Of a stretch of 20,000 nt of DNA, positions 4,105-20,000 are shown piece after piece; positions within the stretch are counted from its first letter, which is position 1, and each line of letters starts with the position of its first letter. A program made the position numbers and the translations under genes. The notes below the pieces were generated by a model, which ran no database searches, had not been told where the DNA came from, and saw only the letters and a list, made by a program, of their open reading frames with translations. Origin of the DNA: an uncultured virus (IMG/VR IMGVR_UViG_3300027724_000009) (taxonomy: Duplodnaviria; Heunggongvirae; Uroviricota; Caudoviricetes); IMG/VR virus record IMGVR_UViG_3300027724_000009. The stretch is one strand, 5' to 3'.

Positions 4105-4800
4105 TATTATGGCATTAGTTGGCATATATAAAATAACGTCACCATCTAATAAGGTGTATATAGGTCAATCTGTCAATATATTAAATAGAAAAGCGTCTTA
4201 CAAAAGACAAGATTGTAAAAAACAAGCAAAACTATATATGTCACTTTTGAAGTATGGTTTTGATAAACACTCTTTTGATATTTTATGTTTGTGTGATAAA
4301 AGTGAATTAAACGAAAAAGAAAAATCATACATTTTAGAATATGATAGCTTTTTAAATGGTTTGAATTTAACAAGTGGTGGTGAAAGTTGCAATGTGCGGT
4401 CAGATGAAACAAGGATGAAAATGAGTTTAGCACAAAAGCGTAACACCAAAAGTAAGGGACATAAACACACGGAAGAATCTAAAAAGCTAATGAGTGAAAA
4501 TAGAAAAGGAAAAGTAATTAGCGAAACTGGTAGAAAAAATATGAGTTTGGTTCAACTTGGCAAAAAGATGTCAGATGAAACAAAGCAAAAAATTAGCGAC
4601 AAATTAAAAGGAAAGAAAAAAAGCAAAGAGCAAATATTAAAGTTTAGTAAATCTATGATTGGAAACACAAATAGATTAGGCAAAAAAAAGACATTAGAGG
4701 AAAGATTAAAAATATCTAAAAGCAAAATGGGTAGTATAATTCCATTGGAAGTAAGAAATAAAATATCATTAACATTAAAAAATAAATATCATGGCATTAG
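4103..4800 (+). repeat. 16-bp imperfect direct repeat bracketing the endonuclease gene
   Basis: AATATTATGGCATTAG (4103-4118) versus AATATCATGGCATTAG (4785-4800), 15/16 identical. Confidence 0.7.
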
Positions 4801-4807
4801 CAGCTAA
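4109..4807 (+). CDS. Free-standing GIY-YIG homing endonuclease with NUMOD3-like repeats
   Basis: GIYKITSPSNKVYIGQS motif, conserved ELNEKE...LNGLN; C-terminal repeats HKHTEESKKLMS, KMSDETKQKIS, KTLEERLKIS. Confidence 0.92.
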   Translation: MALVGIYKITSPSNKVYIGQSVNILNRKASYKRQDCKKQAKLYMSLLKYGFDKHSFDILCLCDKSELNEKEKSYILEYDSFLNGLNLTSGGESCNVRSDETRMKMSLAQKRNTKSKGHKHTEESKKLMSENRKGKVISETGRKNMSLVQLGKKMSDETKQKISDKLKGKKKSKEQILKFSKSMIGNTNRLGKKKTLEERLKISKSKMGSIIPLEVRNKISLTLKNKYHGISS

Positions 4808-5246
4808 GAATATCCCTGTTGTGGCGAATGTGCCTAACGGCGGTGTAGCACTTATAGCAGCATCTTCAAACACGGTAACATTAGGTAGTAATACAAACGG
4901 CGCAACGGCATACACAGCAGGCACAGCAGGTGGTCGTGTAATGAGCTTAACGGCAGTTACTGATGATACGGTAACGGTTAACGTATTTGTATGGATTCTT
5001 AGAGGTGCAACTGTTATACCGATTGCACTTGTAAACGTTCCTTTGAGTTCAGGTAATACGAATGCAGCACGTTTCAATGTGGACTTTTTAGACGGTGTGA
5101 ATATCGTAGGATTACCGCTTGACAATACAGGTAAAAGATATATTCCTTTATTAGCAGGTGATGTTTTAAGAGTTGGTGCATTAGCGAATTTAACGGCAGC
5201 AAAAACTTGTTGGGTACATGCATCAGGTAGTGATTATCAAGCGTAA
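4791..5246 (+). CDS. Tail-associated structural protein (151 aa)
   Basis: A/G/T/V-rich, beta-strand-like composition; sits among fibre genes and is coupled to the next ORF. Confidence 0.55.
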   Translation: MALAAKNIPVVANVPNGGVALIAASSNTVTLGSNTNGATAYTAGTAGGRVMSLTAVTDDTVTVNVFVWILRGATVIPIALVNVPLSSGNTNAARFNVDFLDGVNIVGLPLDNTGKRYIPLLAGDVLRVGALANLTAAKTCWVHASGSDYQA

Positions 5247-15753: not shown

Positions 15754-16917
15754 TTGAGCGGTTATATAAAATTGTCACGAAAGTATTTTAATAATTTCCT
15801 ATGGAATGAGAAACGTAAATTCTCAAAGGCCGAGGCATGGTTGGATTTGATACAATTAGTGAGATATGACGCAACAAGCAATGGTAAAAAAATAGTAAAT
15901 GGAAAGCTGATTGAATGGAAAAGAGGTGAGTTTCCTGCATCGTCGAGATACCTAAATGAGCGGTGGAATTGGAGTGGACCGTCACAGGTTAAACGTTTCT
16001 TAGATTTACTGAAGAATGAGGACATGATTGCAACAAGAACGGAACAGGGTGAAACAGTTATAAGTCTTTGTAATTACGATAGTTATAATACTGATTGGAA
16101 CGACGTTGGAACAGTAGTTAGAACAGTAGTGAAACACCAACAGAACGGAGATAAAACAGTAGAGGAACAGAAACAGAACGAAACTGTAATACAGTCTAAG
16201 AAAGATAATACAGTTAAGAATGATGAAAAGGGAAACATTCCGTCTGTCGACGGATTTAATCCCCCTGCAGAAAAAATTTTGAAAGAAGAATATCGAAAAG
16301 AATTTTTAAAAGTGATGAAATTCATATTCGAACAACCAATACTGCAGAAGATACCAAAAACGCTGACGGTAGATGAGTATGAAAAATTGAGAGAAAAATT
16401 TACCTTTGAACAGATAGAGGAAATGCTGATAGCAATGGCAAATCACAAAGCAACAAACAAATCGCAAACGATTTACCTGACATTATTGACGTACCTGAAA
16501 AAGAATTTTAGCCAGGGTGAAGTGAAAGAGTTGGAACCGATATTCGAGAAGATGTATCGTGATTTCATTGTGAAACAGGAACCGGATATTCATGCAGTAA
16601 AGTTAACCGACTTTGATAGACGTTCTATGCGTACAATCATTGGTTATTTGCTCGAAAACAATGTGAATGCCAACAAAAAAAGAAACGACAATAGAGATAC
16701 CTCCATTACAGAATTTACCGATAAGGACGGAGCCGTCATATCGTGGAGGTATATACTGACGAATTGGAATAAGTTAGATAATTTCATGCAGAAACGTGTG
16801 AAGTTGACAGAGATAGATAACGATTTAATGAAAATATTAACCGATTTAAAAAATGCAAAACTTAAAACACCTGCTGACGGAAATAAGGACAACTCCCAAA
16901 GAAAAGAATTTAACTAA
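15754..16917 (+). CDS. Phage replication initiator (replisome organiser)
   Basis: TTG start; GYIKLSRK...AEAWLDLI...RGEF..S.RYL..RWNW...V.RFL..L winged-helix N-terminus; followed by a DnaC-like gene. Confidence 0.75.
   Translation: MSGYIKLSRKYFNNFLWNEKRKFSKAEAWLDLIQLVRYDATSNGKKIVNGKLIEWKRGEFPASSRYLNERWNWSGPSQVKRFLDLLKNEDMIATRTEQGETVISLCNYDSYNTDWNDVGTVVRTVVKHQQNGDKTVEEQKQNETVIQSKKDNTVKNDEKGNIPSVDGFNPPAEKILKEEYRKEFLKVMKFIFEQPILQKIPKTLTVDEYEKLREKFTFEQIEEMLIAMANHKATNKSQTIYLTLLTYLKKNFSQGEVKELEPIFEKMYRDFIVKQEPDIHAVKLTDFDRRSMRTIIGYLLENNVNANKKRNDNRDTSITEFTDKDGAVISWRYILTNWNKLDNFMQKRVKLTEIDNDLMKILTDLKNAKLKTPADGNKDNSQRKEFN
16109..16162 (+). repeat. Short direct repeats inside the initiator gene (candidate iterons)
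   Basis: GAACAGTAGT at 16109 and 16121, AAACAGTAG at 16154; related AACAG motifs nearby. Confidence 0.45.
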
Positions 16918-17575
16918 CAGGGAACAAATGCAGTTTGATGCATTCCTCGAAGTATTCAAATCGGTGGCCGGGCACTATGGCCGGAAAGGAGTATTCAGTA
17001 TAGATGATGAGAACAGAGAACAGATAAAATACCTGTTACTGTATTTCAGCAACAACAGAGCATTCAATGAGATCACGCCAAACAATGTGATGAAGTATAA
17101 GCCTGATTTAGAGAAAGGTTTGATTTTGGCCGGTAACGTCGGTAGTGGTAAAACCAATCTACTCCGGATATTTCAAGAAATGAGAATACCGTCCAATTAC
17201 TTCCGTATAGCGTATTGCGACGTGATAACGGACGATTACCGACGGTTGGGTATGCAATCATTGTTTAAATATTACAATTCAAATTTGGAGCGTATTCAGC
17301 ATGATACTTCAGAGAGCATATTCCTGTTTGACGATTTGGGATTTGAAAAGAAGTTCAAGGATTACGGCACCGAGGTAAACTGCCTCATGGATATAATTAT
17401 AAAGCGTGAACGATTATACAATGACTATGGTACACGTTCATTATTTACGACAAATCTAATGTTGAGTGAGATTGAAAGCTATTACGACAACCGTACATTA
17501 TCGAGGTTATGCGGAATGTGCAATGTTATCTACTTAGGCAATAAATCTGACAGTATTGATAGACGTATAAATTAA
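16853..17575 (+). CDS. DnaC/IstB-like helicase loader ATPase
   Basis: GLILAGNVGSGKT, FLFDDLGFE, TTNL and RTLSRL motifs. Confidence 0.82.
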   Translation: MQNLKHLLTEIRTTPKEKNLTNREQMQFDAFLEVFKSVAGHYGRKGVFSIDDENREQIKYLLLYFSNNRAFNEITPNNVMKYKPDLEKGLILAGNVGSGKTNLLRIFQEMRIPSNYFRIAYCDVITDDYRRLGMQSLFKYYNSNLERIQHDTSESIFLFDDLGFEKKFKDYGTEVNCLMDIIIKRERLYNDYGTRSLFTTNLMLSEIESYYDNRTLSRLCGMCNVIYLGNKSDSIDRRIN

Positions 17576-17580
17576 AAAGT

Positions 17581-17748
17581 ATGGAACACACAAACAAAAT
17601 TGCAGTAAAAATTATAATAGAAGAATTTGACGATTACAAAAATAATCCTGAAAATCAATGGCATTATGACAGAGAATACAAGATGATAGTGAAAGCATTG
17701 GAAGAACAGGAAAAGTTGAATAAACATGATAGTATGATAATTTTATAA
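17581..17748 (+). CDS. Hypothetical protein (55 aa, not in ORF track)
   Basis: MEHTNKIAVKIIIEEFDDYKNNPENQWHYDREYKMIVKALEEQEKLNKHDSMIIL*; its TAA stop is the TAAC core of the first hairpin site. Confidence 0.6.
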   Translation: MEHTNKIAVKIIIEEFDDYKNNPENQWHYDREYKMIVKALEEQEKLNKHDSMIIL

Positions 17749-17884
17749 CGCCGTTTTCGGGCTTTGTGCAGGTGGGGAAATCGAAGCCGAAATGTTCAGC
17801 CCACCACTAAACTTAAATTGAAAAACAAATGATGAATACAGTAGAAAGCCCCACTTGCACAAAACCGATGTTAGGCGTAGTGCT
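17746..17884. repeat. attC-like hairpin site 1
   Basis: TAAC (17746); arms CGGGCTTTGTGCAGGTGGGG (17758-17777) and CCCCACTTGCACAAAACCG (17849-17867); GTTAGGC (17870-17876) matches GTTRRRY. Confidence 0.75.
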
Positions 17885-18614
17885 TTTGGAAGATTGCCTT
17901 ACAACGATGGGAAAGCTAACCGACAATTCCGTTGATTTGATAATTACTTCTCCACCTTATAACAAAGCTGGTTACGAAGGTTTTATCCGTAAAAGACACG
18001 AAAAAGATAGTTGGAGCAAAGGCAGAAATATTGAGTATGGCGGTGAAGCGGATAACGACTTTATGATTGAAGCCGAATATCAAGAGCAACAAATAAAGGT
18101 GCTTAATGAAATGCACAGAATATTGAAACCAAACGGAAGTGTATTTTACAACCACAAAGTTAGGGTGGCACAACACAAAGCATCACATCCGATTGAATGG
18201 ATATTAAAAAGCAACTTTACTTTTAGACAGCAAATAATTTGGGATAGAAAAAATAGCCCTGCGGTTGCACCTATTAGATATTTGCCTAATACAGAGTTGA
18301 TTTTTTGGCTAACTAAAACACCTTGCCAACCTAACTTTGAAAGAGCAAAAGCACCTTTATTTGTTGGTGAAGTATGGCAGTTTTCGGCTAAACCTAATCC
18401 GCTTCATCCTGCGCCATTTCCAGAAGAATTGCCAACTAATATTATGATGTGTATTAAGGATAAAACCGAAGATTTTGTAGTGTATGACCCTTATGCTGGA
18501 ACAGGAACAACCTTAAAGGTAGCGAGGTCATTTGGACTTAAATACTTTGGTAGCGAAATAAATTCAAACTATTGTCGGTTAGCTAACGAAACTTTGAATG
18601 GAACGCTGTTTTAG
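17829..18614 (+). CDS. DNA methyltransferase, beta class N4-C/N6-A
   Basis: VDLIITSPPYN (motif IV) precedes HPAPFPEEL and VYDPYAGTGTT (motif I). Confidence 0.92.
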   Translation: MMNTVESPTCTKPMLGVVLLEDCLTTMGKLTDNSVDLIITSPPYNKAGYEGFIRKRHEKDSWSKGRNIEYGGEADNDFMIEAEYQEQQIKVLNEMHRILKPNGSVFYNHKVRVAQHKASHPIEWILKSNFTFRQQIIWDRKNSPAVAPIRYLPNTELIFWLTKTPCQPNFERAKAPLFVGEVWQFSAKPNPLHPAPFPEELPTNIMMCIKDKTEDFVVYDPYAGTGTTLKVARSFGLKYFGSEINSNYCRLANETLNGTLF

Positions 18615-18649
18615 CATTACGCCTAACAAAGCGATTGGCGCAGTGCGAA
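18613..18649. repeat. attC-like site 2 (truncated/degenerate)
   Basis: AGCATTACGCCTAAC (RYYYAAC core at 18621-18627), then only AAAGCG-ATTGGCGCAGTGCGAA with no long stem. Confidence 0.55.
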
Positions 18650-18673
18650 TTTTAACAACAAAATTTAAATAGA

Positions 18674-18907
18674 ATGGAAGACCAAAAGTATTACCAAAAA
18701 CAAAGAGAGGCTATTTTGAATGATAGCCAAAGAAAAGAACTATTTAAGGCACTATTTGAACTATACGCAAATGCAATGCCGATAGCTTTAAAAAAAGATG
18801 ACGGAACAGTTATATGTTCTTATTCTGATAAAGTAGAAGAATTAGCCGAAAAGATAAGAGAGCAAATACGATTAAGGGATAATCAAGTTTTCGAAGCACA
18901 TTCGTAG
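18674..18907 (+). CDS. Hypothetical protein (77 aa)
   Basis: ORF with A-rich leader lying between sites 2 and 3. Confidence 0.7.
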   Translation: MEDQKYYQKQREAILNDSQRKELFKALFELYANAMPIALKKDDGTVICSYSDKVEELAEKIREQIRLRDNQVFEAHS

Positions 18908-18913
18908 TATTGG

Positions 18914-19051
18914 TGCTAACGTTGAAGCTATGACCAGTAAAGTATTACGGGCTTCGTACCTGTCAAAATACACCGATGCTGATGCGAGCTACAATGCTGA
19001 ATTAACCACTAAAAACTTTATTGGTTATAGCTTGTGTTAGCAAATCGGCTT
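18914..19051. repeat. attC-like hairpin site 3
   Basis: TGCTAAC (18914-18920); arms AAGCTATGACCAGTAAAGT (18925-18943) and ACTTTATTGGTTATAGCTT (19015-19033), 17/19 paired; GTTAGCA (19036-19042). Confidence 0.8.
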
Positions 19052-19083
19052 TTTTTTAGTAATTAATTTAAAATCAATTTTAT

Positions 19084-19494
19084 ATGAACAACTTAAATGA
19101 TTTATCAAAACAAATTTACGAAGGAAATAAACTTCGTGGCTTCGATGTTTCAAAAGAAAATATCGGACAAACTTTAATGCTTGTAGTTTCAGAACTTGCT
19201 GAGGCTTTAGAGGCTGACCGAAAAGACAAAAGGAAAATGTTAAATGCCTTTGAACAAGATTTAGGATATGCAAAACTTTCAATTTCAGATTTTGAAACTG
19301 AAAACGAAAATTGCGATTGGTTAAAAAACAGATTTGAAACAACTGTAAAAGATACTTTTGAAGATGAAATTGCAGATTCATTTATTCGCCTTTTCGACCT
19401 ATGTGGTGGTTTAGGAATTGATATTGAAAAACATATTGATTTAAAACTTCGATATAATTCAACTCGCACTTTCAAACATGGTAAGCGGTATTAA
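19084..19494 (+). CDS. MazG-like nucleotide pyrophosphohydrolase
   Basis: LVVSELAEALEA...EDEIADSFIRLFDL (ExxE...ExxD) and GIDIEKHIDLKLRYN. Confidence 0.85.
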   Translation: MNNLNDLSKQIYEGNKLRGFDVSKENIGQTLMLVVSELAEALEADRKDKRKMLNAFEQDLGYAKLSISDFETENENCDWLKNRFETTVKDTFEDEIADSFIRLFDLCGGLGIDIEKHIDLKLRYNSTRTFKHGKRY

Positions 19495-19566
19495 GCTGTT
19501 TGCTAACGGTTCGCAGCTATACGCAGTTGTGTGTCGGCTTTGTGCGGTGGGGAAATTGCGTATAGC
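19493..19566. repeat. attC-like hairpin site 4a (right core missing)
   Basis: TGCTAAC (19501-19507); arms GCTATACGCAGTT (19516-19528) and AATTGCGTATAGC (19554-19566), 12/13 paired. Confidence 0.7.
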
Positions 19567-19694
19567 GTTTTCGGGCTTGGCGAAGTGGCTGAACCCGAAC
19601 TTAAATAGAATTACAAAACTTAATAATTAAAAACGAATGATTGATAGAATTACTGAACAGCCATTTTGCCAAACCCGTGTTATGTGCAGGGCGG
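19561..19694. repeat. attC-like hairpin site 4b
   Basis: TAGC in place of TAAC; arms CGGGCTTGGCGAAGTGGCTG (19572-19591) and CAGCCATTTTGCCAAACCCG (19658-19677), 17/20 paired; GTTATGT (19679-19685). Confidence 0.75.
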
Positions 19695-20000
19695 TTGATA
19701 ACCTTGAACTCCTTTTGTCGCAACCTAATGAAAGTGTAGATTTGATTTATTGCGATATTCTTTATGGAACTGGTAGAAATTTCGGAGATTACCAAGACTT
19801 AAAACCGATTAGAAGTGAAATTGAAAGCCACTATTTGCCACGATTAAAAGAAATGCACCGAGTATTGAAAAGTACAGGAAGTATTTATTTACAAATGGAT
19901 ACTAAAATAAACCATTGGATTAGATGCTTAATGGATGAAGTTTTTGAATATGGTAATTTTAGAAATGAAATAATTTGGTGCTATTCGGGTGGTGGAAGAA
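19637..20000 (+). CDS. Second beta-class DNA methyltransferase, 3' truncated by window (not in ORF track)
   Basis: MIDRITEQPFCQTRVMCRAVDNLELLLSQPNESVDLIYCDILYGTG...PRLKEMHRVLKSTGSIYLQMD...FRNEIIWCY. Confidence 0.85.
   Translation, partial: MIDRITEQPFCQTRVMCRAVDNLELLLSQPNESVDLIYCDILYGTGRNFGDYQDLKPIRSEIESHYLPRLKEMHRVLKSTGSIYLQMDTKINHWIRCLMDEVFEYGNFRNEIIWCYSGGGR

Follow-up and report, generated by a model that had tools for sequence, protein, structure and literature searches.

Start codons in the loops of attC-like hairpins between accessory genes of Bacteroidota phages

The last 2.3 kb of a 20-kb stretch of DNA from an uncultured tailed virus (IMG/VR record IMGVR_UViG_3300027724_000009; all of its 20,000 nucleotides (nt) are called the window below) are, from about 17.6 kb onwards on the + strand, an accessory-gene array of a Bacteroidota phage, with structured junction modules between the genes. 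Each module runs from TAAC to GTTA and consists of an imperfect stem of 18-20 bp, with non-Watson-Crick positions at fixed places, and a variable loop; in two of them, H1 and H4, this loop holds the ATG of a DNA methyltransferase gene. Sequence comparison gave good in silico support for the reading that the loop ATG is a conserved in-frame start and that the site would encode the N-terminus of the gene behind it, hereafter the cargo. The same sequences make it reasonably likely that these modules are also points of cargo exchange, in cassettes resembling those formed by the attC sites of integrons.

Start codons in the loops of conserved modules

Three full TAAC...GTTA hairpins, H1, H3 and H4, were found in the array (Table 1). 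The arms of H1 are complementary at 16 of 18 positions and enclose a 71-nt loop, in which a leader at 17810-17828 (AACTTAAATTGAAAAACAA) precedes the ATG at 17829, and the loop of H4, of 66-68 nt, holds the ATG at 19637 behind the leader AACTTAAAT...AATTAAAAACGA; what the two leaders have in common is AACTTAAAT...AAAAAC(A/G)A. The preliminary description of this DNA had placed both methylase start codons in hairpin loops behind similar A-rich leaders, with the right arm and GTT core translated, and direct reading confirmed both points, the right arm and GTTA giving MMNTVESPTCTKPMLGVV in H1 and MIDRITEQPFCQTRVMCRAV in H4 when read as codons. H3 is non-coding, and the next ATG lies 45 nt downstream of it. 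The left core of H4 is TAGC in the window and TAAC in most relatives, because a truncated extra site is fused to H4 in the window; an intact relative of the truncated site follows a methylase in mymlan6-1 (L188 6521-6581). A half-site precedes orf77 (18624-18673), for which no right arm was found, and half-sites of this kind also occur in the arrays of Muminvirus phages.

The reading frame was followed in all unique contexts in which a single long open frame crosses the GTTA junction. An open, in-frame loop ATG was present in 120 of the 127 contexts (95 of 99 in the H4 family, or module family 2, and 25 of 28 in the H1 family, or module family 1), as expected from the earlier claim that the site encodes the protein N-terminus. 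Among the seven remaining contexts, GTG stands in place of the ATG in one, and in at least two the gene begins further downstream. The distance between start codon and stem matches the frame of the cargo with no exceptions, the ATG lying 21 nt from the arm for frame-0 cargos and 20 nt for frame-1 cargos in the H4 family, and the loop offsets being 27/24 (frame 0) and 26/23 (frame 1) in the H1 family. The arm is read in both frames, as ...PFCQTRV or ...HFAKPVL and as ...PTCTKPML or ...PHLHKTDV, and thus it is the DNA that is conserved and not the peptide. Clustering at >=40% identity divides the cargos into 32 unrelated groups, 15 of which had Pfam hits (N6_N4 methylase in seven, C5 methylase in two, and Mom, HNH, wHTH, DUF3268 and Thg1), the other 17 having none.

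Two checks had been proposed for a site-encoded N-terminus, that homologous methylases should lack the extra residues and that unrelated phage proteins should share the leaders, and both came out in its favour. Homologues without a module lack the extension; their first residue lies 7-12 positions ahead of the conserved (N/L)ED or DNLEL motif, with beginnings such as MIDIRLSDNLELM (mumin gp007 and P12002L gp36) or of the MELNKIYNED type (relatives of methylase 1). Cargo proteins that are unrelated to each other have site-encoded leaders in common. The leader motif was found at 0 of 22 gene starts upstream of the array, so it is not the general start context of this phage. In 54 further contexts with no long frame at the junction, the open reading frame (ORF) of the loop runs for about 20 codons only, and a leader of its own precedes the next gene. 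In mumin6-3, gp006 lies behind a family-2 module and gp012 behind a family-1 module, and the N-termini predicted from loop starts are MIDRITEQPFCQTR for gp006 and MLNIVQKPTLHK / MQKSLFENEMLNIV for gp012. GenBank also lists coding sequences (CDSs) of about 34 aa, named 'hypothetical protein', inside Muminvirus hairpins (L002 5894-5998, with equivalents in L003, L188 and L189), which are probably not genes. We also rejected, by inference, an RNase III-type processing site, since cleavage of the stem would separate the coding part from its start.

Folding energies were -3.29 standard scores (z) for H1, with 0 of 200 shuffles as stable, z -2.81 for H3 (18917-19039; 1 of 200) and z -1.33 for H4 (20 of 200), and a scan of the whole window against Rfam at E<=1 gave 0 matches. 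H1 is thus the one site that stands out by this measure. Since folding energy alone is only modestly unusual, the reality of the hairpins rests on conservation, which indicates that they are not chance structures. The exact 25-mer of the H4 right arm occurs in at least 122 IMG/VR stretches and in 17 stretches of bacterial genome collections, mostly Bacteroidota metagenome-assembled genomes (MAGs) together with a prophage-like region of a Lacibacter chromosome; a 19-mer of the H1 arm occurs in 60 stretches, and module family 1 in 52 unique contexts. Across 115 unique contexts of the H4 family, the roughly 118 nt from TAAC to GTTA are nearly constant, and the flanking sequences vary from the very edges of TAAC and GTTA outwards. 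The inner stem of the H1 family co-varies (GTGGGG/CCCCAC, TGCCGA/TCGGCA, TAGCGG/CCGCTA), with 6.29 of 8 positions pairing with the own partner versus 4.76 of 8 with mismatched partners, and a C.A mismatch and a G.T wobble keep fixed places in the stem across 15 site families. Because the H4 arms also occur in metagenome contigs with a 26-nt loop replacing the one with leader and ATG, the loop is the variable terminal part. The modules are spread over phages of several Bacteroidota classes.

Two further observations concern the modules themselves. In the H1 loop (17778-17806), GGTGGGG (17771-17777) may pair with CCCACC (17800-17805) rather than with the right arm, and TTTCGGGCTT could pair with AAGCCGAAA; such local pairings might compete with the long stem. 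On L200, a contig of a Bacteroidales MAG, the 25-base arm of H4 and a cargo start lie at about 5001-5025 between direct repeats of about 30 nt (GTTTCAATTCCAATAAGGTGCGATTGATAG), which looks like a host CRISPR array with a spacer targeting the conserved module.

Table 1. Hairpin sites, flanking repeats and genes of the array (window coordinates)
Feature	Position	Strand	Details
H1 (module family 1)	17746..17873	+	TAAC 17746-17749; arms 17760-17777 / 17849-17866; GTTA 17870-17873
DNA methyltransferase 1 (N6_N4_Mtase)	17829..18614	+	domain starts at residue 35; first 13 residues predicted from loop and right arm
x flank, cassette 1	17874..17884	+	GGCGTAGTGCT after GTTA; complementary to 18613-18623
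x' flank and TAAC ending cassette 1	18613..18627	+	AGCATTACGCC TAAC
Half-site before orf77	18624..18673	+	TAAC, left-arm-like stretch, A-rich leader
orf77, cargo gene	18674..18907	+	no family match
H3	18917..19039	+	TAAC 18917-18920; arms 18925-18946 / 19012-19033, 86% complementary; GTTA 19036-19039
MazG-like pyrophosphatase cassette	19040..19507	+	x GCAAA 19040-19044; CDS 19084-19494; x' TTTGC and TAAC 19499-19507
Truncated extra site, fused to H4	19504..19566	+	TAAC; inverted repeat 19515-19525 / 19557-19566
H4 (module family 2)	19563..19682	+	TAGC 19563-19566; arms 19572-19591 / 19658-19677; GTTA 19679-19682
DNA methyltransferase 2 (N6_N4_Mtase)	19637..19999	+	domain starts at residue 34; runs off the window

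Inverse repeats and exchange points around the cargo genes

Cargo genes are bracketed by inverse repeats, x after GTTA and x' before the following TAAC. Those around methylase 1 (GTTAGGCGTAGTGCT / AGCATTACGCCTAAC) are 16 nt long, 94% complementary and 728 nt apart, and those around the MazG-like gene (GTTAGCAAA / TTTGCTAAC) are 9 nt long; the methylase 1 homologue of mumin6-3 has GTTAGCCGCAGT / ATTGCGGCTAAC, which amounts to two compensatory changes. When the 8 nt after GTTA were compared with the 8 nt before TAAC, x and x' of the same cassette were complementary at 6.01 of 8 positions, versus 2.79 of 8 for mismatched cassettes. The 12-nt consensus of the flanks is ATTGCNNNTAAC / GTTANNNGCWGT, and TAAC lies within -3 to +50 nt of the stop codon in 85 of 90 cassettes. 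Such gene-bracketing inverse repeats are the hallmark of integron cassettes, whose ends meet in a circular intermediate, and they argue for integron-like circular cassettes here. Some H1-family loci (e.g. L132, L152, L154) read GTTA-CCTGCCG-T-run-...CGG-TAAC with no ORF after the site, and may be empty or ORF-less cassettes.

Exchange points were mapped by comparing near-identical Muminvirus genomes with 99-100% identical flanks. Four events, two of them insertions and two replacements, have TAACGTT as the only shared sequence at their junctions, which lie at the left end of a site. The terminal insertion of snork9-1 comprises hairpin, GTTA-x, gene and x'-TAAC, placed between ...GCTTATAAC and the backbone, and the right end of the array is x'-TAAC followed by backbone, without a hairpin. 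Altogether, six mapped events have their junctions at the TAAC side. In the lineage of the window, metagenome contigs X21/X23 carry a different site directly after the TAAC ending at 18627, behind methylase 1, and variant contigs including L208 and L209 diverge exactly after 18627; further breaks lie at 17750/17754, before 19566 and after 19682. Assemblies, and the 7.2-kb viral fragment G001, which is identical to window 16800-17754 and stops at the first hairpin, end or branch exactly at module edges (17754, 18627, 19566, 19682); the modules behave as repeats at which assembly breaks, and they mark variants of the array within populations.

The site downstream of a gene is seldom the same twice. 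In a gene-centred search, methylase 1 at 99% identity stood behind the H1 module in three of four contexts, with three upstream flanks, and behind an H4-like module once, and its downstream site was different every time (window, L208, L209, X21/X23). For six cargo genes the downstream sites formed 57 clusters in 58 contexts, those of single cargos differing in 23 of 24, 12 of 12 and 9 of 9 contexts. Same-downstream and same-upstream pairs numbered 367 and 3, counts that we do not take to prove an orientation, the sites having been located via the module and a few cargo genes being dominant. With most mapped exchanges at the TAAC end, the mobile unit would be module, gene and x'-TAA.

Weighing of the explanations

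In the explanation we favour, translation would start at the loop ATG and take in the right arm and the GTTA core before it reaches the cargo, as the frames suggest, so that the site would supply the first 13-15 residues and a one-base difference in loop length would fit it to each cargo. The modules would be the points where phages exchange cargo genes, and the x/x' repeats (GTTA-x ... x'-TAAC) would rebuild one long hairpin if a cassette circularises, as in integron cassettes. Exchange would proceed by attC-like single-strand recombination, catalysed by a tyrosine recombinase of the host or occasionally of the phage, with homologous exchange between module copies on top; the site-specific reaction and homology-driven exchange may well act together. 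A more specific version, which we put forward tentatively, is an integrase-less phage cassette system in which one hairpin would be exchange site, initiation region and first 13-15 codons, recombining on the coding strand as a mirror image of integrons.

Features of attC sites that were found here are the inverse cores AAC (5') and GTT (3'), present as TAAC/GTTA at H1 and H3, and the complementarity of the cassette start to the inverse core at its own end. In the methylase array of Polaribacter phage P12002L, Qi et al. 2023 (PMC9892861) found the terminal site to be recombined by IntI1, with a verified crossover that corresponds to GCCTAA|C on the methylase-coding strand of L004. A candidate enzyme for the sites is a 298-aa Xer-like tyrosine recombinase encoded at L190 1183-2079 (170-kb viral contig G002), directly after a module-bearing homologue of methylase 2 and its x'-TAAC.

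Several observations weigh against this explanation. One junction of a permutation in snork lies inside the 20-nt left arm, and another (event 5) lies at GTTAT|, the hairpin being kept with the upstream methylase; at 17754, five bases after TAAC remain with the upstream gene; and cargo of identical sequence was found behind modules of both families, with the join exactly at GTTA. Variation along the H4 module is independent of the cargo ahead of the ATG (z -1.6 to 2.9) and linked to it behind the ATG (z 10-19), the latter in a manner explicable by selection for frame, and the spacer variant is linked to neither flank and hence is no marker of the crossover side. Among near-identical module pairs, 50 of 60 have neither flank in common, so that modules are also exchanged or homogenised alone, which points to homologous exchange. 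The ATGs at 17868, overlapping the GTTA core, and at 19682 exist, as had been cautioned, are in frame and give N-termini of family-typical length; they are possible additional starts of the window methylases. Distinct flanks seldom conform fully to the canonical boxes, with RYYYAAC in 11 of 104 upstream and GTTRRRY in 8 of 50 downstream. Only one of five related records, and neither isolate genome, contained a tyrosine recombinase (PF00589); this Xer-like protein, encoded in L190, scored below every NCBIfam cut-off (154.8 against 265 for TIGR02249, the integron integrase), and, in the available text of PMC9892861, IntI1 acted on one of the two P12002L sites, P12002L_attC1 not recombining.

The choice of strand is a further difficulty. 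Folding leaves 4-6 unpaired bases after TAAC and 1-2 before GTTA, an asymmetry noted correctly in the preliminary description, which took it for the mirror image of canonical attC; this interpretation was not upheld. In the accessible part of Nivina et al. 2016 (PMC5027507), extrahelical bases share an arm with 5'-AAC in the canonical top strand, so the + strand of our sites looks canonical. The 3-6 nt bulge, to which a single extra base is added in 6 of 15 site families, lies on the TAAC arm of the + strand, and by the integron rule cleavage would therefore be predicted on the minus strand, unlike the junction mapping, which points to the + strand. Folding energy gives no strand signal, the + strand being more stable in 10 of 17 sites, and counts of G.T versus A.C pairs (23 vs 14) are too weak for choosing a strand.

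These results bear on two earlier proposals. A cassette made of an upstream hairpin and its gene is partly supported: the TAAC junctions, the hairpin-less right end and the failure of downstream sites to stay with their gene agree with it, but exchanges inside the arm and at GTTA, and the lack of linkage of most of the module to either flank, do not, so that it appears to hold for recent events and not as a strict rule. Similarly, a crossover at AA/C on the + strand fits the recent events at TAAC, but not those inside the left arm and at GTTA.

Much of the contrary evidence would follow if the modules were 5' regulatory elements like the PeSLs of T4-type phages (PMC2839356 and PMC4122927, in the parts available, provide the precedent), with cargo shuffled by relaxed homologous recombination or gene conversion and no site-specific enzyme. 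Crossovers inside the arm, a spacer kept with the upstream gene, a left 75 nt of the module unlinked to cargo and to spacer, and the module pairs sharing neither flank are all in line with this; Sak4-like and NinB/Orf-like recombination proteins are encoded in the window, and no recombinase was found in four of the five records. What it leaves unexplained are the x/x' complementarity around genes with its compensatory changes and the exact stops of conservation at TAAC and GTTA, and junctions sharing just 7 nt (TAACGTT) are short for homologous exchange. Direct reading also revealed no T-run terminator after the stems and no recognisable promoter motif in the loop, where TAnnTTTG, the promoter motif of Bacteroidota, was not seen by eye. 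Together with the action of IntI1 on the P12002L terminal site (PMC9892861, as available), this makes a purely PeSL-like origin rather unlikely in our view.

If the orientation were that of classical attC, the hairpin would be owned by the upstream gene, crossover would occur at G|TTA, translation would start at 17868 and 19682, and the loop ATGs would be incidental starts of upstream ORFs. The placing of the extra unpaired bases, which on the + strand share the arm of AAC like those of a canonical top strand, the typical N-termini given by the core ATGs, the Muminvirus hairpin of event 5 that stayed with its upstream methylase in front of differing downstream genes, and the more than 30 different cargos joined to modules exactly at GTTA could all be cited for it. 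It is nevertheless improbable, given a loop ATG in frame in 120 of 127 contexts with loop length matched to frame, a core ATG that is out of frame for family 1 frame-0 cargos, downstream sites of a given gene that differ in 57 of 58 contexts, a terminal cassette with no hairpin after it and six events with junctions at TAAC.

Least probable of all is a small non-autonomous element of about 120 nt with terminal inverted repeats, like a miniature inverted-repeat transposable element (MITE) or an IS200/IS605-like unit, that would insert next to TAAC and bring promoter, leader and start: a discrete near-identical unit in at least 120 contexts in phages of several Bacteroidota classes, the pairs with neither flank in common, the snork insertion that begins after TAAC and ends with TAAC, and the arms that also occur with a 26-nt loop speak for it, but the window showed neither kind of transposase, the pairing of x with x' around the gene is unexplained, repeated independent in-frame insertions before start-less genes are implausible, and the inserted units contain a gene and not the module alone.

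Context of the array and comparison with known systems

The window is from a tailed phage encoding baseplate proteins, an endolysin, an SNF2 helicase, a Sak4-like annealing protein and DnaD-/DnaC-like loaders, and the closest named relatives of the stretch are Flavobacterium, Polaribacter and Cellulophaga phages. RNA runs contained no more than minor fractions of it (0.11-0.16). The array runs from orf55 through an N6/N4 DNA methyltransferase, orf77 and a MazG-like pyrophosphatase to a second methyltransferase that continues past the window end. PF01555 (cut-off 26.7) matched methylase 1 with 106.5 bits and methylase 2, which the window end cuts, with 44.0 bits. The first 15 residues of methylase 2, MIDRITEQPFCQTRV, would be site-encoded. 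Its full-length relative in L190 has 264 aa, and the 3' end was taken from there, an exact 40-mer from the window end having no match among viral contigs. No recombinase was found among the 26 window proteins, nor were the adjacent intI/attI of a complete integron. Away from the array, a GIY-YIG / NUMOD3 homing endonuclease gene lies at 4109-4807 among baseplate and tail genes.

Integron sites are viewed as non-coding appendages downstream of promoterless bacterial genes. The related phage hairpins lie upstream and appear to be translated, which would place one stretch of DNA under structural, recombinational and coding constraint, and would give phages of different Bacteroidota hosts a route to rapid exchange of accessory genes with one another, anti-restriction methylases included. 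If this is true, a start-less gene body dropped behind GTTA would be expressed at once. For annotation, gene callers will misplace these starts and assemblers will break contigs at the modules. A cultured system is at hand, since both module families are present in Muminvirus phages, whose hosts are Flavobacterium sp. LMO6 and LMO9.

The arrays share with integron attC sites, and with CALINs (attC clusters lacking an integrase), an imperfect hairpin with inverse AAC/GTT cores and a variable terminal loop, a site length of 49-128 nt, arrays of one-gene units and a cassette start complementary to the inverse core at its own end; as in CALINs, no integrase lies nearby. They differ in that the site is upstream of the gene, the genes pointing towards the hairpin-less end of the array; a downstream site, which in attC cassettes travels with its gene, almost never does so here. 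They also have their own 12-nt consensus and bulges on the AAC arm, the loop contains a leader and start codon, arm and core are coding, exchange also occurs inside the arms, and the elements are phage-borne across Bacteroidota. Cassettes borrowing an upstream start by fusion are covered by an integron review (PMC8876359), the available part of which does not describe a start codon in the attC loop.

The closest published case is the P12002L CALIN (PMC9892861, in the parts available), with methylases of the same Pfam family between TAAC...GTTA hairpins, matching x/x' flanks (L004) and, in gp36, a homologue of window methylase 2. Thus, attC-like methylase cassettes in a virulent phage of Flavobacteriia are already published (Qi et al. 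2023), and it is the coding use that would be new. That study screened 10,705 phage genomes, with no Flavobacterium phage in the tables and 'Flavobacterium' 0 times in the text as available, and it differs in having two sites in one phage, in 'divergent directions'; its available text holds no loop start codons, translated arms, conserved module families or upstream-site orientation. Searches of open-access papers and preprints found neither the module families nor the upstream orientation described, and no start codons inside hairpins of this kind.

With the PeSLs of T4-type phages (Arbiol 2010, Comeau 2014; both as far as available), the modules share a conserved intergenic stem-loop with an expression signal, located in hyperplastic regions, which mediates insertion, deletion and replacement of accessory genes and can give mini-circles. 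A PeSL differs in placing a sigma-70 promoter beside a terminator stem-loop and in being homology-driven, with no translation or gene-flanking inverse repeats reported in those sources; here the expression signal is inside the loop and the stem is coding. A structure-specific recombination hairpin within protein-coding sequence has a parallel in the synthetic attC sites of Nivina et al. 2020 (PMC7439510, seen in part of its text), which are products of design. The modules of these phages are natural, N-terminal and read in two frames, and if our reading is true, they would be the natural counterpart of engineered attC sites in coding sequence, a hairpin readable in either of two frames.

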